Assembly: GCA_964520805.1 (NCBI GenBank)
Contig: CAZFQH010000001.1
Location: forward strand, 1 to 35,079
Direction: 5' to 3'
DNA: 35,079 nucleotides
From: an uncultured Acidobacteriota bacterium
Lineage (GTDB): Bacteria > Acidobacteriota > Vicinamibacteria > Fen-336 > JAGNNV01
The position numbers and the translations under genes were made by a program. Shown in pieces: positions 6,171-31,651 of the stretch. Numbering within the stretch: position 1 is the stretch's first letter; each line of letters begins with the position of its first letter. The notes below the pieces were generated by a model. It worked only from the letters and a program-made list of their open reading frames with translations. It ran no database searches and had not been told where the DNA came from.

Positions 6171-7088
6171 TCATTGTGTCCCGATTCTTTGCGGAAGCGA
6201 CAGGTGGGAATCGTCGAAGGTCTCGCGAAAGTTGCGGGGCGAGACGCCGAACACGTTCTTGAAGGCGCGTGAAAAATGGAACGCGTCCCGGAAGAGAAGC
6301 TCGGCCGCGACCTGCTTCACGGTGTGACCTGGATCTTCGAGCAGCTTCGCTGCCCGGTTCATCCGAAGCCGGGTCAGGAATTCGTAGGGCGTCTGGCGGT
6401 CGTAGCGTTGAAACAACCGGCAGAGATAGGCCTCGCTCACGTGACACTCGCGCGCGGTTTCACCGAGTTGGGTCAGCCGCACGTGGTGTTCCTCGATGTG
6501 CTGCCGGCAACGCAGATAGGTGGAGAACGCGGCGGTGTGATCCTCGTGGCCCGGCGAGAGCGCCGCGGCGATCCGCAACATCAGGTAGTGGAGGCGCGCG
6601 CTCGCGAGTTCGTTCGCCATGGCGCCACCCCGCGAGCCGTCGTGCACGAGGTCGTCGAACGCGCGCTGGATGTCGGCCGGACTGTCCACATGGCACCAGG
6701 CACCCTGGGCGAGCCGGCAATCGAGCAACATACGAGTCGCATCGGCGCCCACGAAGTCCACGAAATACTTGCTGGGCGGGTCATCGCGATTGGCGGCGAT
6801 TCGGTGTGGAGTTCTGGGCCCATAACAGAAGACGAGGCCGGGCCGGAGCGCAACGTCCTGCCCGGCGATCTGAAGACTGCCCCGGCCCGAGGCCACGAAC
6901 TCGAGGCCGAGGTAGGGGAAGTTCGCGCGGTCGATGAGGTAGTCGGGATGACATCGCTCGAAGCCGCCGCAAACGACGGCCAGAGACGCCTCCGCGGGGG
7001 GTGCGAGGTCAAGATAGAACGAGCGGACGTACTTCACCTGGCGCGAAAAAAACGCCGGTTGCGACCTTTCCCGCTCTCTCTGCTCCAA
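6171..7088 (-). CDS. AraC/XylS-family transcriptional regulator (cupin-like sensor + C-terminal HTH)
   Basis: TTG start at 7088, preceded by GGAAGGAG. The C-terminus carries AraC-type HTH strings (ECHVSEAYLCRLFQRY, FRDAFHFSRAFKNVFGVSP). The gene is divergent from the TBDR operon and co-directional with 4051-6138, from which it is separated by a 32-nt gap. Confidence 0.85.
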   Translation of the reverse strand: MEQRERERSQPAFFSRQVKYVRSFYLDLAPPAEASLAVVCGGFERCHPDYLIDRANFPYLGLEFVASGRGSLQIAGQDVALRPGLVFCYGPRTPHRIAANRDDPPSKYFVDFVGADATRMLLDCRLAQGAWCHVDSPADIQRAFDDLVHDGSRGGAMANELASARLHYLMLRIAAALSPGHEDHTAAFSTYLRCRQHIEEHHVRLTQLGETARECHVSEAYLCRLFQRYDRQTPYEFLTRLRMNRAAKLLEDPGHTVKQVAAELLFRDAFHFSRAFKNVFGVSPRNFRETFDDSHLSLPQRIGTQ

Positions 7089-7347: not shown

Positions 7348-7372
7348 GTTGTCTGAGGGAGACAACTTTTTT
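7348..7372 (+). terminator. Leader hairpin + T6 (terminator/attenuator-like) in the TBDR 5' leader
   Basis: GTTGTCT (7348-7354) pairs with AGACAAC (7360-7366) around a 5-nt loop and is followed directly by TTTTTT (7367-7372), 40 nt before the ATG. A weaker equivalent (4-bp stem + T7) is at 24383-24408. Confidence 0.35.
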
Positions 7373-7411
7373 CGACGGACGATCAAGTCCAACCAGACGG
7401 AGGGTACTTAT

Positions 7412-10400: not shown

Positions 10401-10432
10401 TCCGTCTGTCGGTTCGGTATAACTTCAACTAG
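7412..10432 (+). CDS. TonB-dependent outer-membrane receptor with N-terminal carboxypeptidase-regulatory-like domain (intact, 1006 aa)
   Basis: ATG 7412 follows GGAGGG (7398-7403). Signal peptide MKFTKSWRLAIVAGLMATVSVAQA. The CarboxypepD_reg-like segment reads GRVLDSQGLAVPGATVTVSS...GRYRATRLPRGVYSVRV, and plug and barrel strings follow. The C-terminus (RLSVRYNFN) ends in an aromatic-type residue. Confidence 0.9.
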   Translation: MKFTKSWRLAIVAGLMATVSVAQARIDGTIEGRVLDSQGLAVPGATVTVSSPALIQTAVVVTGAEGRYRATRLPRGVYSVRVTMDGFRTRELTGIVLSVGKVLVIDPTIEPGGTTESVTVEAETPVIDTQQVKNVQTITSEVIDQVPLSRNPILGPTQLAPGVVERTSSGSRRNETNFTVDGANVQAPDQGYSEANVSWDAVEEIEFITTANPMENYGAIGGTLNLVTRTGSNKMQGMASYYFTNRGLSQVLLPQEHSNTLRIGQPSLAEYERDLSLRLSGPLRKDRLWFVVNYRLFKDEKAGTFVPATINGKQFDNYAAPLDQKWYFGKLTAQITPKVRWFGSYTYSAGDAPQELASAPPRRTLEATRHWAAKQHTASSQLTWTLSPRTLLDARFGIWRFKYDGTSQDGTEANPAYFDEFSGYQYGRWSGGRDGTDKRNYNASAAVTHFLDNWGGSHELKAGIEYQKLNGGFYFSSENSIGEWRTYRDNIYYYRGLLGLSGPDPVRGDGLLTFLTASTEELGSGVPSLFARSGGFVSDVWRINSRLTLNLGLRYDSTKSRIDDVTKPAADPLAQAIGQAVFVPRFGINPFGALSSAGQDNRIPWSGFSGQVGAAFDLTGDRKTILKASASSYQERLLGWHVNFGVPSGQASFPMNWFDLNGNGRPDLPGTDRYVQANNASPIALQGTTWHQNVDPNLKTPYVLEYRLGIERQIGGFNVGVAGMYRDRKNLMTSLLYDLNSKSYWSDASSGYWVPFTTTVPAAGTSFPATPTTVYFQKTNSPAAFTRITNIDAKARYQALEVTTNKRWNGRYMVGGSVVFSKNYGNYEVWGNNNGLGQFQTPNYAVNRGDSREPFDRPVVVKLFGSVKMPAEVRMSYNFFYTDGAPWNRTVTVQPPAAWAAANGVSTASQTIWVEPRGNRRDQAITNLDLRLEKLFRISGRHELGVFIDAFNVTGFSYLTFQSNPGGTWSPTDVGVTTGTFSPASTSALSQTGVRTFRLSVRYNFN

Positions 10433-10452
10433 CGGGTGAAGCCCAGGGCCGT

Positions 10453-10478
10453 GGACGGCTCCGCTTGTGGAGCCGTCC
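10453..10478 (+). promoter_or_regulatory. Intercistronic perfect 10-bp GC-rich stem-loop (possible attenuator or mRNA-stability element)
   Basis: GGACGGCTCC (10453-10462), loop GCTTGT, GGAGCCGTCC (10469-10478). It lies 21 nt after the TBDR stop and 40 nt before the next start. There is no U-tract. Confidence 0.5.
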
Positions 10479-10518
10479 GCGTCCGCCGACCGTGGGCCGA
10501 GTGCCTGAGGGACCCCGT

Positions 10519-11379
10519 ATGCTCCGCTCGATGCGACTCGACGCCCATCAGCATTTCTGGCGTTACGACCCGGCGCATCATGCGTGGATGACGGACGCGA
10601 TGGGTACTTTGAAGCAGGATTACCTTCCTGAAGACCTGGCCCCGCTCCTTCAGGCGACTGGATTCGAGCGAACGATCGCAGTGCAGGCGCGCCAGATGAC
10701 CGAAGAAACCGAATGGCTGCTCGCTCTCGCCGACCAGCACACGTTCATCCACGGCGTCGTGGGCTGGGTGGACCTGCGTTCGCCCGACCTTGGGGCGCAG
10801 CTCAGAAGGTTCGGCGCGAACCCGAAGCTTGTGGGCGTACGCCACGTGGTCCACGACGAACCCGACGAAGACTTCATGCGGCGGCCCGATTTCCGTCGCG
10901 GGATCGCGCGCCTCGCGGACGCCGGTCTCACCTACGATCTGCTGCTGCGTCCCCCGCACCTCAAGGCGGCGATCCTCCTGGTCGATGAGTTCAAACACCA
11001 GCCCTTCGTGCTCGATCACATCGCCAAGCCCGGGGTCGGGGAAGCGTCGGTCTCGCCCTGGAAGGAGGATGTGTGTCGTCTTGCCGAACGACCGAACGTG
11101 TTCTGCAAACTCTCCGGCCTCGTCACGGAGGCCGATTGGAACGGGTGGCGGCCCGACGACTTCCGGCCAGCCCTTGATGTCGTGTTCGAGGCGTTTGGTG
11201 CCGAACGACTGATGATCGGCTCCGATTGGCCGGTCTGTACGCTGGCCGCGGACTATGCGACCACGATGGGTGTCGTGATGGATTTTGTGCACGACCTTAA
11301 AGCGTCAGAGCAGGCCTCCATCCTGGGTGGGAACTGTGCGCGCTTCTACGGCCTGACCCAGATCGAGGAGGCTGCATGA
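10519..11379 (+). CDS. Amidohydrolase-2 family sugar lactonase (L-fucono-1,5-lactonase-like)
   Basis: ATG 10519 follows GAGGGA. The strings RLDAHQHFW, CKLSGLVTEADW and GSDWPVC match my recollection of the COG3618 lactonase group that includes L-fucono-1,5-lactonase. Confidence 0.75.
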   Translation: MLRSMRLDAHQHFWRYDPAHHAWMTDAMGTLKQDYLPEDLAPLLQATGFERTIAVQARQMTEETEWLLALADQHTFIHGVVGWVDLRSPDLGAQLRRFGANPKLVGVRHVVHDEPDEDFMRRPDFRRGIARLADAGLTYDLLLRPPHLKAAILLVDEFKHQPFVLDHIAKPGVGEASVSPWKEDVCRLAERPNVFCKLSGLVTEADWNGWRPDDFRPALDVVFEAFGAERLMIGSDWPVCTLAADYATTMGVVMDFVHDLKASEQASILGGNCARFYGLTQIEEAA

Positions 11380-12467
11380 GCCGGATGCTTACCGCCGTGT
11401 TGCACGGACCGCGGGACTTGCGCGTCGAGGAGCGCCCGATCCCGGAGCTCGAGCCCGGCATGGTGCTCGTGCGGGTTCGTCGGCTTGGCCTCTGCGGCAC
11501 CGACGTTCACTACTTTGAGGAGGGGCGGGTGGGAGCCTTCGTGGCCTCGGCGCCCTTCGTGCTGGGCCATGAGTTGTGCGGCGAGGTGGCGGCCGTAGCA
11601 GATGGGGTCCAACGGCCGAGGGTGGGCGACCGCGTGGTCGTGAATCCGGCCCGACAATGCGGGCAGTGTGAGTTCTGTCGGGCGGGTCGCGGCAACTTGT
11701 GCCTCAACATCCGGATGTTGGGTAGCGCCAGCACGCGTCCTCCGACGGACGGCGGTATGGCCGAGTACCTGAAGGTCGGGGCGGAGCAGTGCTACGTGAT
11801 GCCCCCGCAGATGGACGACGGTATCGGCGCCCTCATGGAGCCTCTGGCGGTGGCGCTTCAGGCCCTTCACCGGGCCGGTTCAGTCGCCGGCCGTCGTGTG
11901 CTCGTGTGTGGAGGCGGCCCCATCGGCCTTCTGATCGCGCTCACCGCACGCGCGTTTGGCGCTTCGACCGTGGCCCTCACCGACCCAGTGCCCGAGCGCC
12001 GGGAGCTGGCCCTCGCGATGGGCGCCGACGTGGCCTTCGAGGCCCTGTCCGCTGATCTCCCCAATCAGGGCGTGTTGCCGATCGGAGCCGGGATCGACGA
12101 GGGGTTCGAAGTGCTGTTCGAAGCCTCGGGCGCCGGGGCCGCGACCGAGCAGGCGTTCGAGCTCGCGCGGCGCGGCGCGACCATCGTTCAGGTCGGCTCG
12201 CCCCTGGAGGCGCGAACGCCGCTTCCGCTCCGGCAGTTGCTCGTGAAGGAGCTGCAGTTTGTGGGATCGTTCCGTTACGGGAACGTCTGGGAACAGGCGA
12301 TCCGCCTCGGGGCCTCTGGACGGCTGAACCTGAAGCCCCTCATCACCCACGTGCTGCCGTTCACTCAGGCGCGCGAGGCGCTGGAGCTGGCGGCGGCGCG
12401 GGGGGCTGCCCTGAAGGTTCAAATCGATATCGGTTCAAGGAATCAGGGAGGTATGGACCACCCATGA
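11376..12467 (+). CDS. Zn-dependent medium-chain dehydrogenase/reductase (sorbitol / L-idonate dehydrogenase-like)
   Basis: ATGA start/stop overlap with the upstream gene; GAGGAGG Shine-Dalgarno (SD). Catalytic Zn context CGTDVH...GHE, structural Zn cluster CGQCEFCRAGRGNLC, and Rossmann motif GGGPIG. Confidence 0.85.
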   Translation: MSRMLTAVLHGPRDLRVEERPIPELEPGMVLVRVRRLGLCGTDVHYFEEGRVGAFVASAPFVLGHELCGEVAAVADGVQRPRVGDRVVVNPARQCGQCEFCRAGRGNLCLNIRMLGSASTRPPTDGGMAEYLKVGAEQCYVMPPQMDDGIGALMEPLAVALQALHRAGSVAGRRVLVCGGGPIGLLIALTARAFGASTVALTDPVPERRELALAMGADVAFEALSADLPNQGVLPIGAGIDEGFEVLFEASGAGAATEQAFELARRGATIVQVGSPLEARTPLPLRQLLVKELQFVGSFRYGNVWEQAIRLGASGRLNLKPLITHVLPFTQAREALELAAARGAALKVQIDIGSRNQGGMDHP

Positions 12468-13444
12468 ATACGGCGACCGAAGTCGCTCCGCGAACGAGCA
12501 CCGCCCTTCAGTACCGTCCGCTCGGCGCTACGGGGATCAACGTCTCCAGCCTGAGTTTCGGGGCCTCCTCCCTCGGCGGGGTCTTTCGCGAAGTCCACGA
12601 GGCCGAAGGCATCGCCGCGGTCCACACCGCGCTGGATCTCGGCATCAACTACTTCGACGTCGCGCCGGCCTACGGCGGCACGCGAGCGGAGACCGTGCTC
12701 GGTCGGGCCCTTCGTGGCGTGCCCCGCGACCGGTTCTATATCTCGACCAAGGTCGGGAAGTACACGAGCCCGACGAGCTACGGCGAGGACCATTTTGACT
12801 ACTCGCGCGAGCGGATCCGCGCTTCCCTCGACGAGAGTGCCTCTCGCCTGGGAGTCGACTACTTCGACATCGTGCACCTGCACGACATCGAGTACCAGGG
12901 TCGTCGCCATGTGGAATGGGCTCTTCGCGAGGGGATCGAGGCGCTGCAGGAACTGCGGCGGGAGGGCCGGATCGGCGCCATCAGCTTCGGCATCCACCCG
13001 ATGGACCTGTGGCGCCGTGTACTTGCGGACTGCGACGTGCAGGCCGCCCTCGTCCACAACCACTACTGCCTGAACGACACGCGGCTGCTGGAGCTCCTGG
13101 CCGTGGCGACCGCGCGCAGGATCGGGATCATCAACGGCTCTCCGTTCGCAAGCGGCCTGTTGACCGATCGCGGGCCGGCGGCCTGGCACCCCGCAGGCGA
13201 GCCCGACCGCGCGCTGTTTCGGCGCGCCGCCGAGCACTGTGCCAGTCGTGGCACGAGCATCAGTCAGCTTGCGCTCCAGTTCGCAAGCCAGCATCCGCAG
13301 ATTCCGACCACGCTCTTCAGCTCGGCGAGCGCCGAGTCGGTTCGCCGCAACGTCGCCTGGCACACTCAGCCGGCAGATCCCGAGATCGTGGCCGAAGTCA
13401 TGGAGATTCTGCGCCCGGTGCGCGATAAAGACTGGAACTACTGA
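12464..13444 (+). CDS. Aldo-keto reductase (L-fucose / L-galactose 1-dehydrogenase-like)
   Basis: ATGA overlap with the upstream stop. AKR strings are present (LGATGINVSSLSFGAS, GINYFDVAPAYGG, HLHDIE). It sits next to a lactonase, as expected for sugar 1-oxidation. Confidence 0.8.
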   Translation: MNTATEVAPRTSTALQYRPLGATGINVSSLSFGASSLGGVFREVHEAEGIAAVHTALDLGINYFDVAPAYGGTRAETVLGRALRGVPRDRFYISTKVGKYTSPTSYGEDHFDYSRERIRASLDESASRLGVDYFDIVHLHDIEYQGRRHVEWALREGIEALQELRREGRIGAISFGIHPMDLWRRVLADCDVQAALVHNHYCLNDTRLLELLAVATARRIGIINGSPFASGLLTDRGPAAWHPAGEPDRALFRRAAEHCASRGTSISQLALQFASQHPQIPTTLFSSASAESVRRNVAWHTQPADPEIVAEVMEILRPVRDKDWNY

Positions 13445-13465
13445 AGTGATGTGAGGGAGGCGAGC

Positions 13466-15025
13466 GTGAGCAAAAGAAACTGGCGGCTCTTGGTGGCCCT
13501 GGGCTTGTCGGCGTGTGCGCTCGCTTCCGCGCCGGGATCCGTGGCCGCTGGTTCGGGCGCGCCCCCGCGGCCTCCAAACGTCGTTTTCATCCTCGCCGAC
13601 GATCTGGGTTACGGCGACATTGGAGCCAACAACCCTCAGTCCCGGATTCCCACGCCGCACATCGACCGCATCGCGCGCGAGGGGATGCGCTTTACCGACG
13701 CCCACTCTCCGGCTGCCGTGTGCACACCGAGCCGCTACGGCATCCTCACCGGACGCTACGCGTGGCGGACCTGGCTGAAGCAGGGCGTGGTCGGGGGCTA
13801 TACGCCGCCGCTGATCGAGCCCGACCGGCCCACCGTCGCATCATTCCTCAAGCAAAACGGCTATACCACCGCGATGATCGGCAAGTGGCATCTCGGTCTC
13901 GGCTGGGTCCGCGCGAACGGTTTCGTGGGAACCGCGGCGAACGCCGAGCAAAACGTCGCCGGGTCATGGCAGGACGGCGAGGCCGCAAAGGGCATGAATG
14001 TGGATTTCGATAAGCCGGTCAAGGGCGGCCCGCGGGACCTGGGCTTTGACTACGCCTACTTCACCGCGGCCTGTCCGACGATGGACGGTCCCTTCACGTT
14101 CATTCGGAACGATCGCCCGACCGCGCGACCCGACCGGAAGATCTTCATCGACCCAAAGGCCGAGGAGGAGTACGGCCGCCCTCGGCCTGGGTGGATCGCA
14201 CCCGGCTTCTCGCTCGAAACCGTGGATATCGAGTTTGTGAACGAGGCGATCTCGTTCATGCGGCGCAGTGTCGCCGAGCAACCGGGGCGCCCTTTTTTCG
14301 TTCACTTGTCCTTGTCTTCGCCTCACACCCCCTGGCTCGTTCCGACCTTTGCCCAGGGTGCTAGCGAAGATGGGCCGCGCGGGGACCTCGTCACCGTCGC
14401 GGACTGGGCGGTGGGAGAAGTAAGGGCAGCGCTTGATCGACTCGGGGTGTCCGGCGATACGCTGCTCATCTTTACGAGCGACAACGGCCCGCACCCAGGC
14501 ATCGATGAACATGCCTCCGCCGGCGCCTTCCGCGGGTACAAGTCGCACACCTGGGAAGGAGGTCATCGCGTCCCCTTGGTCGCGCGCTGGCCGGGCCACA
14601 TTCCTGAAGGTGTCCTAAGCCCCGAGCCCGTCGAGCTCACCGACCTCATGGGCACTCTTGCCGGCGTTCTCGGCCGGGATCTGCCGAAGGACGCCGGACC
14701 CGACAGCTACGACATCTCGCCCGCGCTCTTCGGCCAGCGGCTGGGACGGCCGATCCGCGAGGCGATCGTCTCGCACTCCGTCAACGGCGCGTTCGCGATC
14801 CGCCAGGGCCCGTGGAAGCTGATCCTCGGGACCGACGGATCGGGCGGCTGGGTCCCTCCGGCCGACAAAGCAGCGAGCCCCGACCGTCCCGGCCAGCTCT
14901 ACAACCTCGATACGGATCCGGGTGAGCAGAAAAACCTCTACGCCGACCGTCCCGAGGTCACTGCGCGTCTGCGCGATCTTCTCGCCTCCTATCGGGCGAG
15001 CGGGCGCAGCCGACCGCAGCGGTAG
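13466..15025 (+). CDS. S1-family (arylsulfatase A-type) sulfatase, Cys-type
   Basis: I chose GTG 13466 because GGGAGG lies 6 nt upstream; the track start is 13451. A signal peptide is present. Strings include NVVFILADDLGYGD, the formylglycine motif CTPSR, and GKWHLG. Confidence 0.9.
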   Translation: MSKRNWRLLVALGLSACALASAPGSVAAGSGAPPRPPNVVFILADDLGYGDIGANNPQSRIPTPHIDRIAREGMRFTDAHSPAAVCTPSRYGILTGRYAWRTWLKQGVVGGYTPPLIEPDRPTVASFLKQNGYTTAMIGKWHLGLGWVRANGFVGTAANAEQNVAGSWQDGEAAKGMNVDFDKPVKGGPRDLGFDYAYFTAACPTMDGPFTFIRNDRPTARPDRKIFIDPKAEEEYGRPRPGWIAPGFSLETVDIEFVNEAISFMRRSVAEQPGRPFFVHLSLSSPHTPWLVPTFAQGASEDGPRGDLVTVADWAVGEVRAALDRLGVSGDTLLIFTSDNGPHPGIDEHASAGAFRGYKSHTWEGGHRVPLVARWPGHIPEGVLSPEPVELTDLMGTLAGVLGRDLPKDAGPDSYDISPALFGQRLGRPIREAIVSHSVNGAFAIRQGPWKLILGTDGSGGWVPPADKAASPDRPGQLYNLDTDPGEQKNLYADRPEVTARLRDLLASYRASGRSRPQR

Positions 15026-15828: not shown

Positions 15829-16677
15829 TCACGCCGCCGAGGTAGTAGCCCTCGGGGGCACCAGGCTCGAAGCGTTCTCGACGCGCAGCTCGGGGTGCTC
15901 ACGCTCGAAGTCCAGCCGGACCGAGCCGTCCTGGACGCTCGCCTTGAGCAGCGCCTCGTAACGCAGGCGCTCGGTGGCGTCCGCGAAGCGGTCGGTCCGG
16001 CCGCGCAAGCCGACCGTGCCCGGCGGTTCGCTCGTGATCTCGAAAGCGGCGTCGCCGGCGCCTTTGGGGTTGACTCGACCGGCGAGCGTGGCGGTGAGCT
16101 CCAGCGCAGCGGGCCGATCCGAGGCAATGTGAATGACGATCACGTCGTCGGTGGCGGAAGCGAACACCTCTCTTTGAACCATGGCGCCGCCAACCCGGTA
16201 GCGGGTCGTGGCGATCGCCGTGTCGAGGTCCAGCTCGCGGCGGTACTCGGAGGGGAACGCGTGATCGGGCAGGGTCAGGATGAGGTCGCCGAGCGGCTGG
16301 AAGCGCGCCTGTTCCCAGACCTTCGGCATCATGCTGCGCTCGAAGAGCGCCTCTGCTTCGGCAAGACGGCCGGAAAACACGAGCTTCCGGATCTCCGGCA
16401 GCGAACGGTGGCCGTCGGGCGGGTTTGGATCGTAGGGGCCGCCGGTCCAGACCGTGGCTTCGTTCAGGGCCAGACGTTCGCTGTGCGTGCCGCCGAATAC
16501 CATCGCGCCGAGCCGGCCGTTGCCCACCGGCAGCGCCTCGATCCAGGCCGCCGCGGGGCGGTGATAGATCAGCTTCAGGTTTTGTTGGGCTTCGTCCGAA
16601 CCGTAGGGCGCCGTTCCACCGGCCGCGGCCGCCCCGAGCGCGGCGGCTGCGAGCAGGCCGAGCGCGCGCCGGGCCAT
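15829..16677 (-). pseudogene. GH95 alpha-L-fucosidase, 3'-truncated (signal peptide + N-terminal beta-sandwich only, 282 codons)
   Basis: ATG 16677 overlaps the stop of the binding-protein gene (TGATG). MARRALGLLAAAALGAAAAGG...LKLIYHRPAAAWIEALPVGNGRLGAMVFGG is a typical GH95 N-domain. The frame stops at 15829 about where the (alpha/alpha)6 catalytic domain should begin, and no catalytic-domain sequence follows in any frame. Confidence 0.75.
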
Positions 16678-17669
16678 CAGATCGCGGGTACTCGCTTGAA
16701 ACGCTGGACGGTATCTATGTCGAGGATGGAGACGCCGGTGTCGATCGTCGCGGGCACCGGACCGAAAGGTGCTGACCCCAGAGCTCCTGTCGGGTGGCGG
16801 GCCGCGTGGGCCAGAAGCATCGACATGTAGCCCATCAGATACGGGTTCTGGCCGACCGTGCCGCGGATCTCGCCGCTCTCGATCAGCTCGATCACCGGGG
16901 TCGAGAAGTCGAAGGCCAGGATCTGGACCTTGCCCTTGCGTCCGAGGTTGCGCACGGCCGCGGCCGCGCCGGGCCCTGGGTTTCCGTGGGCGCAGAAGAT
17001 GCCGGTGATCCCCGGGTTGGCCTGCAGCATCGCGGTGATCTGGGTCTCGGCGCGCGCGACGTCGCCCTCGTCGTTGACGGTGGCGATGATGCGAATCTCG
17101 GGGCCGAAGCGCTGGAGCCCGGCCGTGAAGCCCTCCACACGGCTGCGCAGGTGGTCGGGTCCCGGGAAGGTCGAGATGCCCACCTCGCCTTTGCCGCCGA
17201 GCCACCCGGCGAGCGCCTCTCCGGCCGTGAAGCCGGCGTTGTAGTTGTTGGTTCCGACGAAGGCGAGCCGCTTGCTGTTGGGAGCGTCCGAGTCGAAGGT
17301 GACCACCGGGATGCCGGCGGCGATGGCTTTGTCGATCGCGGGGGTGAGGGCCACGGCCTCGGCCGCGGTGACCGCGATCCCGTCCACCTTGCGGGCGACG
17401 AGCTGGTCAATGGTGCGCGCCTCGAGTGCGGCGTCCCACTCCGCCGGGCCCTTGAGTTCGACGGTTACGTGGGGGCCGATCGCGGCGGCCGCGTCGCGCA
17501 TGCCGGCGTACGCCCAGTTGAAGAACTCGCTGCCGCTCAGGAACACCACGGTGGCGTAGGTCTCGGTCGGGCGCGCTCCGGCCGCGGGCGCGGGCGCGCG
17601 GTTGCACGACGTCGCAAGCGCGAACCCGCAGGCGAGAGCGGCCGTCCTGATGGCCGCGTTGCGCCTCAT
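16677..17669 (-). CDS. Periplasmic sugar-binding protein (type I PBP, ribose/monosaccharide ABC class), probable lipoprotein
   Basis: ATGA overlap with the upstream gene. The N-terminus AALACGFALATSC is lipobox-like. PBP1 strings are present (VDGIAVTAAEA, IPVVTFDSD, VGTNNYNAG). Confidence 0.85.
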   Translation of the reverse strand: MRRNAAIRTAALACGFALATSCNRAPAPAAGARPTETYATVVFLSGSEFFNWAYAGMRDAAAAIGPHVTVELKGPAEWDAALEARTIDQLVARKVDGIAVTAAEAVALTPAIDKAIAAGIPVVTFDSDAPNSKRLAFVGTNNYNAGFTAGEALAGWLGGKGEVGISTFPGPDHLRSRVEGFTAGLQRFGPEIRIIATVNDEGDVARAETQITAMLQANPGITGIFCAHGNPGPGAAAAVRNLGRKGKVQILAFDFSTPVIELIESGEIRGTVGQNPYLMGYMSMLLAHAARHPTGALGSAPFGPVPATIDTGVSILDIDTVQRFKRVPAI

Positions 17670-19801
17670 CGCTTGACCCCCGCCGCAGCCGGCCTGGCCG
17701 TGACGCGCACGGAGGCCGGGCCCGTCTTTTCAACCGGCAGCCACAGCACCAGATCGGTCCGGTCAAGGCCGCGCACGTGCCCGAAACGCATGCCCTCGGT
17801 CCGCCCGAGCGCGCGGCCATCGAGTGTGACCACGGGTTCGGCCTCGCCCCACCCCTCGATCTTCAGGGAAACGTTCTCGAGCGGGGCGTCCTCGCTCGCG
17901 TCGAGCCGGAACGAGAGGTTTGCGCCCGCGCCATCGCGGCGCAGCAGATAGCCGCGCTCAGTGCGGTCGTAAGCGCCGCCGCTCCAGCCGGGCCCGCTCA
18001 CCGTGAGCGGGGGGGCCTGCACCCACGAGCGCCCGAGCCGCGCGATGTCTCCGGGCATTGGCTTCGTCCTGGCCCCATAGATCCAGGTCGCGTAGTAGGC
18101 GCCATCCGGGCGTTGGTGAATGGGCGGGCCGCCCCACGAGAGAGAGAAGTGCGACGGTCGGTCGGGCATGATCGCGTAGCGGCCATCCGAGGGGATTTCC
18201 GCCACCGGCCAGTGGTTCCACCAGGGAAAGGCGGAAACGTCGCGCCGCGACTCGATCTTGAACACGCGCATGCGGGCGCCGGGCTCGAAGATCTCGAAGG
18301 GCTTGTACTCGGACTTCAGGTTCACGATCTGGATCACCGGAGCCTTCGGCCGTTCGTCCTTTGAGAAGTCCGGCATTTCGTTCCGCCAGGAGTAGAGGTG
18401 CGACTCGCCCTTCAGGTTGACGAGGGTCAGCGCGTCGAGGTTGATCACGTCCTCCGGCCGGCTCCCCGGCTGCGCGAGCACGATGAACTCCGAGGGACCA
18501 AGCGGCTTCCCGCTGGTCCACATCACCACCTTACGAACCGCGAGGCCGTCCGGGAAGAACGTGAAGTACTCGTCGACCCAGTCGGACCAGCCGGTGCGCG
18601 CGTCGGGCTGCGAAAACTCCTGCCGCACGCTCACGGGCGCGTATCGCCAGTGCACCACGACCCGCGCCTCGGTGTTTTCGATGATGCGCACGTGCGAGTA
18701 GCGGTTCTGCGGGTCGAGCATGTGCTCGAAGCAGCCCTCGTGGTCCGTGAAGTGTTCGGCGCTCTGGTCGGCCATCCACGTCCCGTTCTCCATGACCCAG
18801 GCCGGGGAATAACGCGTCCCGCGCCAGAAAACCACCCTGAGCGGGGATCCGTCGAACTGCACCACGACGTCCGGGTGTTCACTGACCCGGAAGAGTGCGT
18901 CCCACTCCGGGTAGTAATTGAGGTGCGTGTAGTAAGCGCCGAAGCGGCCCGGACCCTTGGGACCCGAGGGCATCACGCGGGGCGGAATCTCGGGCTCAGC
19001 CGGCGGCCTCGCGGCGGAGACTTCGGCCCGCAGATCGGCGGCCGTGCGGGCCGTCCCGTGGATCTTCACTTCGTCGAGGATTCCGTCGAGCGTGAACCAC
19101 GCGGGGAGCGTCGCCTGCGGCCGCACGGGGTGTGACGGCACGCGTTTCTCGTGATTCATTCCGATCAGAAGATCGACGTCTTTTGCCCGCGCAGGGCCAC
19201 CGCTTGCACCGCCCGCCGAGCCGAGATCGGCGGAGGGCTGAAGCTCGCTCCGCTCGCACCGGCGTGCGACCACTCCGTCGACGAAGAGCGTGATGCCGGC
19301 CTCGGGATCGTAGGTGGCGGCCATGTGGGTGAAACGCCGCAGGGGGAGCGTCGGCTTGGTCTGGCACTTCAGCCAATGGCCGGCGGCCGAAAGCTCGAGG
19401 CCGATCTCTCCGAGGGGGCCGATCCCGAAGTAGTACCCGGCGTGTTCGTCGCGTTCGTGGTCCACCACGGGCGCCCAGTTCCAGGGATAGGAGGCGAGTG
19501 CTATCCACGCTTCCACCGTGAAAGCACCCGTGATAACCGGCGCAACGGCGTGGTTACGACGGACCAGGGAGGTAAAGCCGTCGAGCCGGATCGCCTGTCC
19601 GACGACCCCCTTCACGCGGGTGATCCGTCCCTCGATCGCATCGCTGATCGAGGCGGCACGGTCACGCGCTACGTCCGCGCCGGGGTCGTCGTCGAACGAC
19701 CACCACGCGAGGGGCGACGAGGGTTGCGCGGGCTGGGCGTGCCCGGCGCTCGACGCCACGAGGGCCAGCGCGAGGCTAAGGGCGACTCGCGCGCTCACCA
19801 C
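17666..19801 (-). CDS. Secreted LamG/concanavalin-like domain protein with uncharacterised ~450-aa C-terminal beta-rich module (paralog 2)
   Basis: GTG start 19801 (or 19798) overlaps the GntR stop (GTGGTGA). Signal peptide MVSARVALSLALALVASSAGHAQP. Collinear with 4051-6138 along the whole length. Confidence 0.8.
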   Translation of the reverse strand: MVSARVALSLALALVASSAGHAQPAQPSSPLAWWSFDDDPGADVARDRAASISDAIEGRITRVKGVVGQAIRLDGFTSLVRRNHAVAPVITGAFTVEAWIALASYPWNWAPVVDHERDEHAGYYFGIGPLGEIGLELSAAGHWLKCQTKPTLPLRRFTHMAATYDPEAGITLFVDGVVARRCERSELQPSADLGSAGGASGGPARAKDVDLLIGMNHEKRVPSHPVRPQATLPAWFTLDGILDEVKIHGTARTAADLRAEVSAARPPAEPEIPPRVMPSGPKGPGRFGAYYTHLNYYPEWDALFRVSEHPDVVVQFDGSPLRVVFWRGTRYSPAWVMENGTWMADQSAEHFTDHEGCFEHMLDPQNRYSHVRIIENTEARVVVHWRYAPVSVRQEFSQPDARTGWSDWVDEYFTFFPDGLAVRKVVMWTSGKPLGPSEFIVLAQPGSRPEDVINLDALTLVNLKGESHLYSWRNEMPDFSKDERPKAPVIQIVNLKSEYKPFEIFEPGARMRVFKIESRRDVSAFPWWNHWPVAEIPSDGRYAIMPDRPSHFSLSWGGPPIHQRPDGAYYATWIYGARTKPMPGDIARLGRSWVQAPPLTVSGPGWSGGAYDRTERGYLLRRDGAGANLSFRLDASEDAPLENVSLKIEGWGEAEPVVTLDGRALGRTEGMRFGHVRGLDRTDLVLWLPVEKTGPASVRVTARPAAAGVKR

Positions 19802-20523
19802 GTCCCGCGCTCGCCGAGGTCGTTCACAATGCGGACGTAGCGTTCGCTGCCCTGCCTCCAGTTTGCGGTGGTGGCCTGTTCGGCCGCGTCCGCGTCTCCT
19901 TTTCGGATGGCTTTGATCATTTCTTCATGCTCCTTGAGGGCGTCGCCGAAATCAGTCAGTAGGGCCGAGGTGTAAACACGTTCATAGCGTTCGACCTGGG
20001 GCTGGAAGGCCCGCAGTTCGGCGGAAAGGCGGCGGCCGGTCACCGCTTCGTCAATAGCGCGATGGAACGCCACATGCAGATCCTGGGCCTCGCGCAGGCG
20101 GCCCGATCGGGAGTTCCACGCGTCGCGGAGCGCGTTGTTCAGTCCCTCGAGTCGGGTGACGAGCTCGAGCCGTGGCGCATCGGCAAGCTGGGTCACCGAG
20201 CGCGCCGCGAGCCCCTGGAGCGCGCCGAAGATCGCGTGGAGCTCCTTCATGTCTTCCACCGTCATCGGCGCGACGCTCAGGCGAGTGATCGCGCCGTGGC
20301 GGTGGGCGACCACGAATCCCTCCTGCTCAAGCTGCTGAAGCGCCTGGCGGATCGGCGTTCGGCTGGCTCCGAGCCTCAGCGTCAACTCGGACTCGCTGAG
20401 GGGCGTGCCGGGTGAGAGTTTCATCGCGACGATCAGGTCGCGGATCTGATGGTGTGCGTCGCGTCCCAGGCTCTCCTGAGGCTTTGCTTGTTTTCGTGCG
20501 CCGTTCATTCGGGGCCGTTCCAT
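19795..20523 (-). CDS. GntR-family (FadR-like C-terminal domain) transcriptional regulator
   Basis: Winged-helix strings LSESELTLRLGASRTPIRQALQQLEQEGFV are followed by a helical FCD-like C-terminal domain. Start ATG 20523 gives 242 aa; ATG 20508 and the track start 20610 are alternatives. Confidence 0.8.
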   Translation of the reverse strand: MERPRMNGARKQAKPQESLGRDAHHQIRDLIVAMKLSPGTPLSESELTLRLGASRTPIRQALQQLEQEGFVVAHRHGAITRLSVAPMTVEDMKELHAIFGALQGLAARSVTQLADAPRLELVTRLEGLNNALRDAWNSRSGRLREAQDLHVAFHRAIDEAVTGRRLSAELRAFQPQVERYERVYTSALLTDFGDALKEHEEMIKAIRKGDADAAEQATTANWRQGSERYVRIVNDLGERGTW

Positions 20524-20543
20524 TAAGGGGACTGTGTCCAGAC

Positions 20544-20551
20544 TTGTATAC
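20544..20551. promoter_or_regulatory. TTGTATAC half-perfect GntR/FadR-type operator in the divergent GntR/ABC intergenic region
   Basis: Lies between the GntR start (20523) and the permease start (20629), in a low-GC stretch. It matches the palindromes in both TBDR promoters. Confidence 0.4.
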
Positions 20552-20628
20552 CGTCTTCGACTCCCGTAACTTATAGCAAGAAGGCAGCGTAGCCAAGAGG
20601 CATCTGACATTTTGAACTTGAGAACACT

Positions 20629-21588
20629 ATGGTAGAGGTTTTTGGGAAACGAGCGGGTTTCGGCCGCGAGGCGGTACTTCTTGCCACGATTCTGGCTCTC
20701 GCGGCGGGGCTCGCGGTCGCCCGGCCCGGTTTCCTCGCTTCTGAAAACCTGATCTCGATCGCGACCGGGATGGTCTACGACCTGCCCCTCGCCATGGCCG
20801 CGACCCTGGTTCTGGTCGTGGGCGGCATCGACCTTTCGCTCGGCGCGGTGCTCGCGCTGTCGAGTGTGGTGACGACACTCTCGCTGCGCTCGGGGGTGCC
20901 GATTCCCTTGGCCATCGCGGCGGGGCTGGGCGTCGCCGCCGCCGTCGGGGCGCTGAACGGCCTGCTGGTCACGCGCTTTCGTCTGGCGCCGTTCATCGTC
21001 ACTTTAGGCACGATGTCGCTCGCCCGCGGCGCCGCGGTTGTGCTCACCTCGGGCTACATGGTCGCCGGCCTGCCGCCCGCCTTCCTGGCCCTCGGGCGTG
21101 AAAGGCTGCTCTTTCTGCCGGTAGCGATCTGGATCGTGGTCGCCCTGCTGCTCTTCGGCCACGTGCTGCTGCGCCGCTACCGGCCCCTTCACGACGCCTT
21201 CTATGTTGGGCAGAACCGCGAGGCGGCGCGGCTCTCCGGCCTGCGCGCCGATGCTCTGACCGCCTCGATCTATGTCACGAGCGCCGTGCTCGCGGGCGTC
21301 GCGGCCCTCTTCATGAGCTCAAGGCTCGGAATGGGTTATGCACGCTTCGGAGAGCTTGCGGAGCTGCGGGCGATCGCGGCCGCGGTGCTTGGGGGGGCAG
21401 CGTTCAGCGGCGGCGCCGGCAGCATTCTGGGATCGGCGCTCGGCGTCTTGTTGCTGGCGCTCATCCAGAACGGCTTCGTCCTCCTCAATGCGTCGATTCA
21501 CTGGCAGAACGTCGCGACCGGGCTGGTCCTGCTCCTCGCGATCTCGATCGATGCCGTACGACGGCGTTTCAGCGGGGAGCGCGCGTGA
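20629..21588 (+). CDS. Sugar ABC transporter permease (RbsC/AraH-like, BPD_transp_2)
   Basis: Multi-pass hydrophobic protein with GGIDLSLGAV, TLGTMSLARG and GGAAFSGGAGSILGS strings typical of monosaccharide ABC permeases. Confidence 0.85.
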   Translation: MVEVFGKRAGFGREAVLLATILALAAGLAVARPGFLASENLISIATGMVYDLPLAMAATLVLVVGGIDLSLGAVLALSSVVTTLSLRSGVPIPLAIAAGLGVAAAVGALNGLLVTRFRLAPFIVTLGTMSLARGAAVVLTSGYMVAGLPPAFLALGRERLLFLPVAIWIVVALLLFGHVLLRRYRPLHDAFYVGQNREAARLSGLRADALTASIYVTSAVLAGVAALFMSSRLGMGYARFGELAELRAIAAAVLGGAAFSGGAGSILGSALGVLLLALIQNGFVLLNASIHWQNVATGLVLLLAISIDAVRRRFSGERA

Positions 21589-23066
21589 ACGCCTTGGTCA
21601 CGCTCGATGGCGTCTCCAAGCGCTATGGGCAGAACACCGTCCTGCACGATGTGTCGTTCGAGGTCGCCCCGGGATCGATCCACGCGGTGGTGGGTGAGAA
21701 CGGCGCCGGCAAGTCCACCTTGATGCACATTCTGGGCGGCCTGCACCGGCCCGATGGCGGTCGCCTGCTGCTCGACGGCAAAATCGTGAGACTCAAGGGA
21801 CCGCTCGACGCGATCGAGCGCGGCATCAGTTCCGTGCACCAGGAGCTGAGCCTCTTCCCAAACCGGACCGTGGCCCAAAACATCATGGTGCGGCGTGAGC
21901 CGACGCGGGCCGGGTTCGTGAAACGCTCCGAGCTCGAAGCGCGGGCCACCGAGGCGCTCGCGCGAGTCGGCAGCGGGATCGATCCCACGCTACCGCTCGG
22001 CCGCCTTGGCATTGGCGAACAGCAGGTGGTGGAGATCGCCCGCGCGCTCGAGCGCCGGGCCCGGCTGCTGGTTCTCGACGAACCGACGGCGGCGCTCACG
22101 GATCAGGATGCCTTGCGCCTCTTCGAGGTGTTGCGCGATCTGCGCGCGAAGGGCGTGGCCGTGCTTTACGTGTCGCACCGGCTCCCCGAAGTCCTCGCGC
22201 TCGCCGACACCATTTCGGTGCTGCGCGACGGGCGGCTCGTCGCGACTCTCGTAGCCGCCGAGACGTCCGAGGATGAACTCGTGCGCCTGATGGTCGGGCG
22301 CGAGCCCGAGCCCCTGGCCGAGCGCTCCGTGGCCGAACCCGGGCCAGACCTTTTGGTGGTGTCAAATCTCGGCCGTGCTCCCGCGTTCGCCGACGTGAAT
22401 TTCTCGCTGCGGCGGGGCGAGGTGCTCGGCTTCGCCGGCCTCATCGGTGCCGGCCGCACCGAGGTGGCTCGGGTCATCTTCGGCGCGGACCTCCTCGCCA
22501 CCGGCTCGATGACCCTCGGCGGCGAGCCGTTTAGTCCACGCACGCCGCGCGAAGCGATCGCCCTTGGGGTTTCGTACCTCACCGAGGATCGCCGCGGCCT
22601 CGGACTGTTCCTCGGGCTGTCCCTGCGCGACAACGTCGTGGCGGCGTCGCAGGCCGCCGTCGTCTCCCGGTTCGGCTTTCTGCGACCGCGGCGACTCAAA
22701 GAGGTGGCGATGGCGCTCCTGCGCAGGCTCGATGTGCGACCGCTGGATGACGAACGCGAGGTGTCGCACCTGAGCGGCGGCAACCAGCAAAAAGTCCTGC
22801 TCGCGCGCTGGCTCATGGCCACCCCGCGGGTTCTCATCGCCGACGAGCCCACGCGAGGGGTCGACGTCGGTGCGAAGCAACGGATTCATGCCGAGCTTCA
22901 GGGTCTTTCGCGGAGCGGCGTCGGAATCATCCTCGTTTCGTCAGACCTTCGCGAGGTCCTATCGCTCAGTCACCGGGTCGCGGTGTTCCGCGCGGGAAGG
23001 CTCGTGCGGATCCTCGAAGCAGTCGAAGCCAACGAGGAGGCGGTGATGCGTTATGCCGCGCTCTAG
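21585..23066 (+). CDS. Sugar ABC transporter ATP-binding protein (duplicated ATPase, RbsA/MglA-like)
   Basis: GTGA overlap with the upstream stop. Walker A GENGAGKST, signature LSGGNQQK, Walker B LLVLDEPT / LIADEPTRGVD, and two nucleotide-binding domains. Confidence 0.9.
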   Translation: MNALVTLDGVSKRYGQNTVLHDVSFEVAPGSIHAVVGENGAGKSTLMHILGGLHRPDGGRLLLDGKIVRLKGPLDAIERGISSVHQELSLFPNRTVAQNIMVRREPTRAGFVKRSELEARATEALARVGSGIDPTLPLGRLGIGEQQVVEIARALERRARLLVLDEPTAALTDQDALRLFEVLRDLRAKGVAVLYVSHRLPEVLALADTISVLRDGRLVATLVAAETSEDELVRLMVGREPEPLAERSVAEPGPDLLVVSNLGRAPAFADVNFSLRRGEVLGFAGLIGAGRTEVARVIFGADLLATGSMTLGGEPFSPRTPREAIALGVSYLTEDRRGLGLFLGLSLRDNVVAASQAAVVSRFGFLRPRRLKEVAMALLRRLDVRPLDDEREVSHLSGGNQQKVLLARWLMATPRVLIADEPTRGVDVGAKQRIHAELQGLSRSGVGIILVSSDLREVLSLSHRVAVFRAGRLVRILEAVEANEEAVMRYAAL

Positions 23067-24006
23067 GTTAAGCGCCGTGCCCGCCCAGCAGCTCGCCCTG
23101 GTTTTCTGCATCGTGGCGCTTTCGGGCTTCATGGCCGTCACCTATCCGGGCTTTGCCTCCATCGAGAACGCCGAGGTGATCGCGATGGGATTCGTGTTTG
23201 AGGGATTCATGGCGCTCGGCATGACCCTCGTGATCGTGACCGGTGGCATAGATCTCTCAGTGGGCGCGGTGCTGCCGTTTTCGGCGATCCTCACCGCCTT
23301 GCTGCTGCGGGCCGGCGTGCCGGTGCCTCTTGCCGTTTTCGGCGCTCTCACGATCGCCGCGCTCATCGGACTACTGAACGCGCTGGCCATCTCTGGACTC
23401 AGGGTGCACCCCTTCATCGTGACGCTCGCCACCATGCTCTCGCTCAAAGGGTTGAATCTCGTGCTCACCGGCGGCGGGCCGATCACGGGGATGCCGCCCG
23501 GCTTTGCGTGGATCGGCCAGGGCCGCCTCCTCGGCGTGCCCATACCCCTCGTGCTCTTCGCCGCGATGGCCGTCTCGCTCGGCCTGCTGTTGCGGCATCA
23601 CCGATTCTGGCAGCAGGCGTATTTGATCGGCGGAAATCCACGCGCCGCACGGACGTCGGGGGTACGCGTTTCCTTCGTGCTCGCGGTCGTCTACGTCGTA
23701 AGCGCGCTTTGCGCTGCGACCGCCGGCGTGATTGCGGCGGCGACCCACGGCAGCGCCAGTGCTGGTTTCGGTCAGAACGCCGAACTGCGCGTGATCACGG
23801 CCGTGGTGATCGGGGGAGCCAGCCTGCAAGGCGGCTCCGGTTCCATCGGTGGAACGCTGCTCGGGCTCTCCTTCCTGGCCCTGCTCTACAACGCCTTTTC
23901 TATGACCGGCGTCTCGACCTATTGGCAGGACGTCGCCACGGGCGCGCTCGTGCTTGGCTCCGCGCTCGCCACGGAGCTCGTCACCAGGCGTCGCGAGCGG
24001 CGGTAG
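23053..24006 (+). CDS. Sugar ABC transporter permease (second subunit)
   Basis: Paralogous to 20629-21588 (GGIDLSVGAV, TLATMLSLKG, GGASLQGGSGSIGG). Overlaps the ATPase stop by 14 nt; a downstream GTG start is possible. Confidence 0.85.
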   Translation: MPRSRLSAVPAQQLALVFCIVALSGFMAVTYPGFASIENAEVIAMGFVFEGFMALGMTLVIVTGGIDLSVGAVLPFSAILTALLLRAGVPVPLAVFGALTIAALIGLLNALAISGLRVHPFIVTLATMLSLKGLNLVLTGGGPITGMPPGFAWIGQGRLLGVPIPLVLFAAMAVSLGLLLRHHRFWQQAYLIGGNPRAARTSGVRVSFVLAVVYVVSALCAATAGVIAAATHGSASAGFGQNAELRVITAVVIGGASLQGGSGSIGGTLLGLSFLALLYNAFSMTGVSTYWQDVATGALVLGSALATELVTRRRERR

Positions 24007-31561: not shown

Positions 31562-31651
31562 AATCTTCCCATTATCCTATGCGAGTAAAGCACCCTTAGA
31601 AAGGGCTTGGCATCGAGCCGAGATGAATGTATTTTGGCAAGCGAGACACTT

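Follow-up and report, generated by a model that had tools for sequence, protein, structure and literature searches.

The 35,079-nt stretch of DNA from an uncultured Acidobacteriota bacterium that was analysed here (the window) encodes a GH95 enzyme, S1 sulfatases, TonB-dependent receptors, a sugar ABC importer and a non-phosphorylative (oxidative) L-fucose pathway, together with two large, probably exported proteins, A and B (Table 1), and the question raised by this locus is what those two proteins do. Few carbon pools in the sea and in sediments are broken down as slowly as the fucose-containing sulfated glycans, and knowledge of the enzymes that attack them is incomplete; the literature describes four endo-fucanase families (GH107, GH168, GH174 and GH187), which GH141 joined in 2025. 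A and B are tentatively interpreted, at somewhat short of an even chance, as two old subfamilies of an uncharacterised exported glycan-active family, for whose members enzymatic activity, and specifically glycoside hydrolysis, is the most likely function. For this family the architecture, fold class, conservation pattern, size and genomic association are established.

Table 1. Positions of paralogs A and B, their domains and the neighbouring genes in the window.
Feature	Position	Strand	Description	Basis
Paralog A	17666..19801	-	711 aa; signal peptide, LamG, mutarotase-like supersandwich, C-terminal beta-sandwich	ORF, Pfam, AlphaFold
A signal peptide	19736..19801	-	predicted Sec; aa 1-22, ...SSAGHA/QP	read from sequence
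A LamG (concanavalin-A-like jelly roll)	19052..19714	-	aa about 30-250; PF13385, 57.7 bits	Pfam
A central galactose-mutarotase-like beta-supersandwich	18008..18949	-	aa about 285-598	AlphaFold, Foldseek, conservation
A NHWP-x5-SDGR loop	18155..18217	-	aa 529-549; near-invariant; pLDDT < 50, unplaced	AlphaFold
A C-terminal beta-sandwich	17687..18007	-	aa about 599-705; least conserved domain	AlphaFold
Paralog B	4051..6138	-	695 aa; architecture as in A; represents second old subfamily	ORF, BLASTP, Pfam
B LamG	5452..5955	-	aa 62-229; PF13385, 77.8 bits	Pfam
B central supersandwich	4384..5373	-	aa about 256-585	alignment to A
GH95 (gene cut by contig end) and S9 DPPIV-like hydrolase	3..4021	+	convergent with B	Pfam
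AraC-type regulator	6171..7088	-	33 nt upstream of B	Pfam
TonB-dependent receptor, Amidohydro_2 lactonase, Zn-ADH, aldo-keto reductase, S1 sulfatase	7349..15025	+		Pfam
Periplasmic sugar-binding protein (Peripla_BP_4)	16677..17669	-	start overlaps A stop by 4 nt	Pfam
GntR/FCD regulator	19795..20610	-	directly upstream of A; stop overlaps A start (GTGGTGA)	Pfam, sequence
ABC sugar importer (permease, double ATPase, permease)	20629..24006	+	divergent from GntR-A operon	Pfam
Second S1 sulfatase	27308..29170	+	26% identical to first S1 sulfatase	

A and B are related over nearly their whole lengths, with 324 of 718 aligned positions identical by BLASTP (45%; 572 bits, E = 0) across A residues 11-705 and B residues 10-694. 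This agrees with the initial annotation, which had judged the two paralogous end to end with about half of their residues identical; a tblastn search of the window found them to be its sole copies. The conserved motifs quoted in that annotation are present, with two details amended: "APVIQ.VN" becomes PVIQ.VN because B carries T, not A, ahead of the P, and in the A/B alignment five residues instead of four lie between the NHWP and SDGR elements. The ORF bearing B extends to position 6447, with GGAGGAG preceding the ATG at 6138, and a public collection contains exactly the 695-aa (B) and 711-aa (A) products. Orthologs of B occur in related Acidobacteriota metagenome-assembled genomes (86-87% identity) and in one Aminicenantes genome (61%). 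A recent segmental duplication of the whole cassette was considered and rejected: identity is 60-76% between the receptors, yet only 26% between the sulfatases and 45% between A and B, and the last two values therefore speak against a recent block duplication. Secretion of both proteins, also proposed earlier, is in line with the Sec-type signal peptides seen by eye at both N-termini (...GASLA/AE in B); the A model begins with a helix at residues 2-17, and the N-termini of homologs are alike. No clear lipobox was found in these signal peptides, those of Bacteroidota homologs included, and because A is in addition translationally coupled to the gene for a sugar-ABC binding protein, a periplasmic role on imported oligosaccharides is suggested. 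The endo-acting, first-attack role put forward in the initial annotation stands as a conjecture.

At the sequence level, the N-terminal domain of each protein is a clear member of the LamG modules (Laminin_G_3, PF13385) known from bacterial carbohydrate-active enzymes and toxins, scoring well above the Pfam cut-off of 27.6 bits (57.7 bits in A, 77.8 in B). Beyond Laminin_G_3, Pfam returned nothing for A and B, and NCBIfam returned nothing. No glycoside hydrolase, lyase, esterase or sulfatase model of either collection matched the C-terminal 450 aa, the same was true of 18 longer family members, and phmmer and two central-domain profiles, one of close homologs and one of diverse members, gave nothing above chance against PDB sequences (E about 1); the C-terminal part thus has no family match in these sequence collections, as had been supposed. 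The full-length AlphaFold model of A (pLDDT 82.5) recovered in Foldseek mainly the LamG-type domains of clostridial neurotoxins, with the LamG of A matching their receptor-binding domains in fold. Since these matches swamped the search and made it uninformative for the C-terminal part, residues 266-600 were modelled alone (pLDDT 71). This model gave 61 PDB matches at E <= 0.001, and the 50 that are listed comprise LacZ domain 5, galactose mutarotase and two GH174 endo-1,3-fucanases, at TM-scores of 0.37-0.47 and identities of 6-9%, values that denote fold-level likeness only. The "~450-aa beta-rich module" of the initial annotation is indeed beta-rich, but in the AlphaFold model it is two domains, a galactose-mutarotase-like supersandwich of ~315 aa followed by a beta-sandwich of ~105 aa. 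The NHWP-x5-SDGR loop may possibly form an active-site lid or an interface.

A supersandwich does not by itself denote catalysis. In most glycoside hydrolases it is a non-catalytic accessory domain, such as LacZ domain 5 or the N-terminal domain of GH95, and the supersandwich domains of LacZ/GH2, GH95, GH65 and GH31 bind sugar and lend loops to active sites. It is conceivable, if unlikely, that A and B are non-catalytic glycan-binding proteins that pass oligosaccharides to the TonB-dependent receptors or the ABC importer, or that scaffold the true enzymes: LamG, mutarotase-like supersandwich and Ig-like sandwich are all folds common in carbohydrate binding, the lowest Foldseek E-value among the 50 matches listed (2.5e-5) belongs to the non-catalytic LacZ domain 5, no catalytic motif of any known Pfam or NCBIfam family is present, and A is co-transcribed with a binding-protein gene. 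The conservation pattern argues against such a role. At 50% identity the family falls into about 1,000 clusters, and across 41 sequences from different phyla the central domain is the best-conserved part of the protein, with a mean column identity of 0.80 (LamG 0.64, C-terminal domain 0.51) and 82 of its 313 columns invariant, so that the strong constraint claimed at the outset is borne out. Its median identity to homologs of other lineages, other phyla included, is 67%, whereas surface glycan-binding proteins diverge fast. Of 129 representatives sharing less than 50% mutual identity, 96-100% retain each of eight charged or histidine residues (D311, E349, E359, D363, R380, R386, D418 and H530). 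Unlike the GH2, GH95, GH65 and GH31 enzymes, A/B-family proteins have no recognisable catalytic barrel or toroid, and of their modules it is the supersandwich that is best conserved.

The behaviour of the other modules points the same way. LamG stands immediately N-terminal of the central domain in 16 of 18 long forms tested and carries additional invariant motifs in this family (YPWNW.P and GMN.EK..PS.PVR); it behaves as a near-obligate partner, not as a freely shuffled accessory. Forms of ~450 aa apparently lacking LamG were rejected as truncated gene calls. Family proteins range from 700 to 1,800 aa, and the long forms gain F5/8-type-C, PA14, PKD, Calx-beta, FN3, Big_2 and dockerin modules; binding-type modules and dockerins are normally appended to catalytic cores, a further point against pure binding, as is the lack of a lipoprotein signal in Bacteroidota homologs. 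Up to five copies occur per locus; they mostly share 33-50% identity and frequently stand in tandem. This enzyme-like conservation and CAZyme-typical module behaviour support the reading of A and B as candidate enzymes.

The link to glycan degradation, first drawn from the window, extends far outside it. Of 47 loci from other species, 33 have a GH95 or S1 sulfatase gene no more than 10 kb away (GH95 in 17, a sulfatase in 19), and the 279 nearest genes include 22 sulfatases, 15 GH95 and 7 radical-SAM genes, plus GH29, GH2 and GH106, with GH10 and GH127 also found near family loci. Single loci carry two susC/susD-like transporter pairs, sulfatase pairs and GH10/GH2/GH127/GH29, and TonB-dependent receptors are likewise seen; the family recurs beside glycoside hydrolases, sulfatases and sugar transporters in unrelated genomes, the setting of a polysaccharide-utilisation-type locus. 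In Aminicenantes, a trio of GH95, S9 and family member recurs in synteny, and a fixed cassette of SSF symporter, PfkB kinase, Fe-ADH and Zn-ADH surrounds the family gene. This cassette is reminiscent of the keto-deoxy-sugar catabolism that follows lyase action, and invariant Arg, His and Asn residues adjoin the carboxylates, as might be expected if A and B performed other chemistry on anionic glycans, for example as polysaccharide lyases or as de-decorating enzymes of the esterase type. That reading is nevertheless quite improbable, as no polysaccharide lyase is found among the 50 Foldseek matches listed, KduI, KdgA and other uronate-specific genes are absent among the most frequent neighbour families, and the neighbours are fucosidases and sulfatases, not uronate enzymes.

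The closest comparison for a hydrolase of fucose-containing glycans is GH174, which appears to be the only glycoside hydrolase family, among the matches listed, whose own structure resembles the central domain. The two GH174 structures of Fun174A type, 9k1g_A (E 8.2e-5, TMq 0.47) and 8jd7_A (E 3.4e-4, TMq 0.45), have in that order the highest query-normalised TM-scores of the 50, values just under 0.5 for a query model of pLDDT 71. The beta-sheet supersandwich matched here is of similar size, and GH174 is described as having a beta-sheet-dominated fold that is unusual among glycoside hydrolases (PMC12534559). The structural match is independent of genomic context. The settings are also alike, since GH174 cleaves sulfated fucans and the family described here adjoins GH95, GH29 and S1 sulfatases. 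Fun174A depends on carboxylates (activity-critical residues D119, E120 and E218; PMC11943901), and the A/B family has invariant carboxylates as well. On the other hand, structural-alignment identity is only 8-9%, no sequence similarity to GH174 was detected at E <= 10 by phmmer or two family profiles against all PDB chains (8JD7 and 9K1G included), the obligate N-terminal LamG has not been reported for GH174, and GH174 is known from marine isolates, whereas members of the A/B family stem from uncultured anaerobes that live in sediments, lakes and the subsurface. An equivalence of D410/E411...E506 with D119/E120...E218 was suggested by similar spacing and rejected as evidence, as E506 is present in 35 of the 129 representatives and E411 in 106.

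There is a slim chance that the family is already in CAZy, as a recent family absent from Pfam, NCBIfam and the PDB, in which case A and B would merely extend a known family. The obvious candidate, compared by description, is GH187 (Fun187A), an endo-1,3-fucanase that is described as beta-sheet dominated, has homologs in Planctomycetota fucoidan loci and was established when a multidomain protein of 101 kDa proved to contain a catalytic domain that had escaped annotation (PMC11943901, PMC12534559, PMC11685898). The A/B family likewise includes a ~890-aa class in Bacteroidota, Planctomycetota and Verrucomicrobiota. Arguing weakly against identity with GH187, two database searches, the second with an 887-aa Bacteroidota form as query, returned no Wenyingzhuangia or other isolate among the best 120 matches listed; the named homologs among these are all annotated as "LamG domain-containing" or "hypothetical" and come from metagenome-assembled genomes. 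Cluster look-ups likewise yielded no named or cultured member.

Galactose mutarotase shares the fold class (1NS0, 3IMH and E. coli GalM; TM about 0.40, E about 1e-4), and its active site sits on the supersandwich itself. That A and B are a periplasmic mutarotase, epimerase or isomerase for released L-fucose or a related sugar ahead of ABC uptake is nonetheless highly improbable: although this would suit the significant fold match, the translational coupling of A to the binding protein of a monosaccharide-type importer, the oxidative L-fucose pathway in the window, the inverting action of GH95 and the presence of a mutarotase in published non-phosphorylative fucose pathways, neither protein matches Aldose_epim (PF01263) in Pfam at E <= 1, hhalign finds no relationship between the family profile and E. 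coli GalM (probability 0.2%), and an exported, multi-copy family of 700-1,800 aa with near-obligate LamG, CBM-like or dockerin fusions and as many as five divergent paralogs in one array is a poor fit to a cytoplasmic, single-domain enzyme of about 340 aa.

A and B are therefore best discussed as candidate hydrolases, probably of fucose-containing sulfated oligosaccharides. A fuller proposal, possible though on balance doubtful, is that they found a new CAZyme family built on a near-obligate unit of LamG and catalytic supersandwich, a very distant structural cousin of GH174. This unit, often present as arrays of divergent paralogs, would let uncultured anaerobes break down those fucose-containing sulfated glycans whose degradation GH95, GH29 and sulfatases cannot complete by themselves. 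We infer a mechanism in which catalysis, the roles of individual residues, substrate and cellular location would fit together as follows. The working unit would be the tandem of LamG jelly roll and mutarotase-like supersandwich, followed by the poorly conserved beta-sandwich. Sec would export A and B to the periplasm, where the supersandwich would display the invariant carboxylates E349, E359, D363, D418 and D311, two of them serving as acid/base and as nucleophile or base. R380, R386, H384 and H530 may grip anionic groups such as sulfate esters, and LamG and the unplaced NHWP...SDGR loop may shut the cleft. The substrate would be a fucose-containing, often sulfated oligosaccharide imported via the neighbouring TonB-dependent receptors; products would pass to GH95 and the S1 sulfatases, and free L-fucose would be taken up by the ABC system, whose binding protein is co-transcribed with A, and enter non-phosphorylative catabolism. 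A (GntR-linked) and B (AraC-linked) would be controlled separately, and their specificities probably differ.

The hosts of the family are almost exclusively uncultured anaerobes from sediment, lake and subsurface habitats, in Acidobacteriota (including Aminicenantes), Bacteroidales, Planctomycetota and Verrucomicrobiota. Brown-algal fucoidan cannot be the general substrate, because most of the metagenome-assembled genomes that supply homologs are from lakes, groundwater and the subsurface; fucoidan is not expected in freshwater and subsurface settings. If catalytic, the family would be a new enzyme family whose fold hardly ever serves for glycoside hydrolysis, and a marker gene for fucose and sulfated-glycan metabolism in anoxic sediments, lakes and aquifers. 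As single, soluble, signal-peptide-bearing proteins, A and B are directly testable. A Cys/His metal site in the "GC.EHM" motif was considered and rejected as a family-wide feature, since C357 occurs in only 96 of the 129 representatives and half of the wider family has P in place of H360. Other central-domain residues singled out in A are E375, H384 and D410, and position 416 is Tyr in 98% of the wider family but F in A and L in B, a departure that counts against the hydrolase reading.

Proteins A and B align over their whole length at 45% identity (BLASTP, 572 bits, E = 0), and both reading frames were recovered where the initial annotation had placed them, bearing out its proposal of end-to-end paralogy; no third copy is present within the 35,079-bp window, which is the entire contig of a metagenome-assembled genome (MAG) with a G+C content of 66%. 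The start of B at ATG 6138 is accompanied by a ribosome-binding site (GGAGGAG), and the public gene call gives the same product. Both N termini read as predicted Sec signal peptides. The conserved blocks quoted in the initial annotation are real, except that one motif is PVIQ.VN and that five residues separate NHWP from SDGR (NHWP-x5-SDGR).

The sole Pfam match of A and B is Laminin_G_3, within the first ~250 residues; an NCBIfam search of the two proteins returned no match, and PDB chains were not matched by sequence, whether the query was A alone or a profile built from close or from diverse relatives. In these searches the C-terminal module matched no known family, as had been supposed. It had been described as a ~450-aa beta-rich module; it is beta-rich, but the AlphaFold model of full-length A (41 homologs as input, pLDDT 82.5) divides it in two, with a LamG jelly roll (residues 30-250) followed by a linker, a large beta-rich domain (~285-598) and a separate C-terminal beta-sandwich (~599-705). 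The only long internal stretch left unplaced is the near-invariant NHWP...SDGR loop (529-549). Because the whole model gave LamG-type matches only in Foldseek, residues 266-600 were modelled separately (pLDDT 71, pTM 0.79). This model had 61 PDB matches at E <= 0.001. Among the 50 listed, LacZ-type beta-galactosidases are matched through their domain 5 (best E 2.5e-5), galactose mutarotases reach a TM of about 0.40, and the two GH174 endo-1,3-fucanase structures, 9K1G and 8JD7, lead in query-normalised TM-score (0.47 and 0.45); no other group is represented. With 6-9% identity in the alignments, the matches assign a fold but give no evidence of homology. As modelled, the central domain of A is a galactose-mutarotase-like beta-supersandwich.

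The family, comprising A, B and the homologs that share this central domain, is real, large, unannotated and robustly tied to fucosidase/sulfatase loci. More than 1,600 proteins in a set of 5.8 billion score as relatives of A, with identity remaining at ~50% in Aminicenantes and Bacteroidales homologs, and an exhaustive search using a central-domain profile returned 1,007 clusters at 50% identity (E <= 1e-3), 311 of them with E <= 1e-30. Named members among the matches listed are all "LamG domain-containing" or "hypothetical" (e.g., HUG55110.1; RFT15273.1 / UniRef A0A3E2BKK4), and all come from MAGs. Scanning one genome per species yielded 290 relatives. For the best 80, the source is in every case a MAG or a metagenome assembly, the lineages being Acidobacteriota/Aminicenantes, Bacteroidota, Planctomycetota and Lentisphaeria; lakes, aquifers, and hydrothermal or deep sediments account for many of them. 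Locus L013 (CAYGYP010000041.1), on a contig binned as Candidatus Bathyarchaeia, encodes a homolog of A type with 70% identity to A in the central domain; either the contig was mis-binned or the gene was transferred to an archaeon. Family proteins range from about 450 to 1,800 aa; the short forms were rejected as real variants, being truncated gene calls. LamG directly precedes the central domain in 16 of 18 longer proteins scanned, the exceptions being P0135, without a LamG match, and P0159, whose sole LamG match lies far upstream. Extra modules in the long forms are F5/8-type-C, PA14, PKD, Calx-beta, FN3, Big_2 and dockerin.

In an alignment of 41 sequences spanning several phyla, the central supersandwich has a mean column identity of 0.80 (82 of 313 columns invariant), LamG one of 0.64 (30/205) and the C-terminal sandwich one of 0.51 (5/105). 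Among 129 representatives sharing less than 50% pairwise identity, D311, E349, E359, D363, R380, R386, D418 and H530 (A numbering) are kept in 96-100%, and E375, H384 and D410 in 88-90%. A constrained core rich in carboxylates, Arg and His with looser flanking modules usually marks a catalytic domain, though it does not prove one. A non-catalytic binding protein, with which the domain folds agree, is unlikely, as neither this conservation nor the appended binding modules fit such a role. The Tyr of the T.YPDG motif, found in 127 of the 129 representatives, is Phe in A (residue 416, window about 18554-18556) and Leu in B, a change also seen in their close Acidobacteriota orthologs.

The survey of genomic context covered 47 loci, each from a different species and none shorter than 12 kb, and counted features within 10 kb. 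Fucosidases and sulfatases dominate: GH95 occurs at 17 loci, an S1 sulfatase at 19, and one or the other at 33, so that the association with glycan-degradation genes extends beyond this window. Zn-ADH was found at 19 loci and an S9 hydrolase at 10. Pfam assignments for the 279 nearest genes include 22 sulfatases, 16 SSF symporters, 15 each of GH95, Fe-ADH and Zn-ADH, and 13 PfkB kinases. Another 7 encode radical-SAM proteins, some of which have SPASM domains, as anaerobic sulfatase maturases do; GH29, GH2, GH106, GH31 and GH10 were also present. A fixed cassette of TonB receptor, ROK regulator, SSF symporter, PfkB kinase, Fe-ADH, family member, Zn-ADH, (S9) and GH95 recurs in Aminicenantes-type loci (L002, L006, L011, L014, L015, L022, L024, L032, L035, L038, L040). 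One Bacteroidota locus has a tandem paralog pair adjoining two sulfatases and two susC/susD-like transporter pairs, and one Bacteroidales locus carries GH10, GH2, GH127 and GH29. Synteny of the S9 DPPIV-like hydrolase with GH95 and a family gene is seen in L002, L011, L014, L015, L040, L081 and L082; the recurrence of this hydrolase may mean that the substrate is a glycoprotein or is esterified. In Bacteroidota loci L001 (5373-8156) and L004 (4359-7144), the family genes have rhodanese and Sulf_transp (YeeE/YedE-like) sulfur-transport genes directly upstream, which may serve in handling sulfur freed from sulfated glycans.

Two to five family copies occur at 16 of the 47 loci, almost always old paralogs of 33-50% identity and often in tandem; A and B themselves fall into separate subfamilies, and orthologs of each occur in other lineages. 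Planctomycetota MAG arrays at L084 (9203-18132) and L086 (9203-20973) comprise four or five tandem paralogs, for which most identities are 38-45% and one pair reaches 75%, and neither GH95 nor a sulfatase lies within 10 kb of them.

The reading favoured here, tentatively, is that of a new glycan-active enzyme family, probably hydrolytic and acting on fucose-containing, often sulfated oligosaccharides. It draws on fold and context, enzyme-like conservation, CAZyme-like modularity and the paralog arrays. LacZ domain 5 aside, the only glycoside hydrolase among the 50 Foldseek matches listed is GH174, a sulfated-fucan hydrolase; the structure search was blind to genomic context, yet the fucose/sulfate theme appears in both, so that two independent lines converge. 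GH174 is described as having an unusual glycoside hydrolase fold dominated by beta-sheet (PMC12534559), and in its member Fun174A residues D119, E120 and E218 are critical (PMC11943901); the likeness of A to GH174 is at most one of fold, with no sequence match in the PDB searches. Catalysis, substrate and endo or exo mode are all inferred, and the endo-acting first attack initially proposed is a narrower hypothesis. Brown-algal fucoidan is disfavoured as a general substrate because many homologs are of freshwater or subsurface origin. It is quite improbable that the family already has a CAZy number, with GH187 as the main candidate, and another chemistry, such as that of a lyase, is equally doubtful. 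A periplasmic mutarotase-like enzyme is very improbable, for although fold and operon agree, the size, fusions and paralog arrays do not, and the family profile has no similarity to GalM. As a candidate for a new family of carbohydrate-active enzymes, the group is a good one and open to direct testing. For these organisms, three observations favour a periplasmic role: the signal peptides are of Sec type and lack a clear lipobox, in Bacteroidota homologs too; A is coupled to the gene for a periplasmic binding protein; and TonB-dependent receptors are encoded nearby. Dockerin- or PKD-bearing long forms elsewhere are presumably extracellular.

Features of the A/B locus
Feature	Coordinates	Strand	Remarks
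GH95	3-1706	+	cut by contig end
S9 DPPIV-like serine hydrolase	1703-4021	+	
B	4051-6138	-	695 aa; ORF open up to 6447
TonB-dependent receptor	7349-10432		
Amidohydro_2 lactonase, Zn-ADH, aldo-keto reductase	10465-13444	+	
Orphan TonB-dependent receptor 3' fragment	15186-15466	+	between sulfatase and GH95 remnant
GH95 remnant	15859-16572	-	only residues 43-278 of full GH95 (N-terminal supersandwich domain)
A	17666-19801	-	711 aa
Second TonB-dependent receptor	24384-27292	+	60-76% identical to the first; split by frameshift near 25340
Cytochrome-c-motif protein	29243-31561	-	772 aa
DHDPS-type aldolase	31607-32599	+	far window end
Aldehyde dehydrogenase	32693-34687	-	far window end

In the window, A sits in the middle of a translationally coupled run (GntR/FCD regulator, A, periplasmic sugar-binding protein, then the GH95 remnant, with no catalytic domain downstream) that is divergent from an ABC sugar importer. 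B lies downstream of an AraC regulator; genes for a TonB-dependent receptor, lactonase, Zn-ADH, aldo-keto reductase and sulfatase are oriented divergently from B, whereas GH95 and the S9 hydrolase run towards it. The orphan receptor fragment aligns with aa 934-1027 of the 7349-10432 receptor (60-70% identity, one frameshift) and looks like a rearrangement scar; for the second receptor, the split reflects either a pseudogene or an error of assembly. The lactonase, dehydrogenases, aldo-keto reductase, aldolase and aldehyde dehydrogenase presumably fit non-phosphorylative L-fucose (or L-galactose) catabolism, and no dehydratase of this putative pathway was identified within the window. The odd one in this otherwise glycan-oriented locus is the 772-aa protein, which has multihaem cytochrome c motifs (paired CXXCH) and C-terminal TPR repeats.
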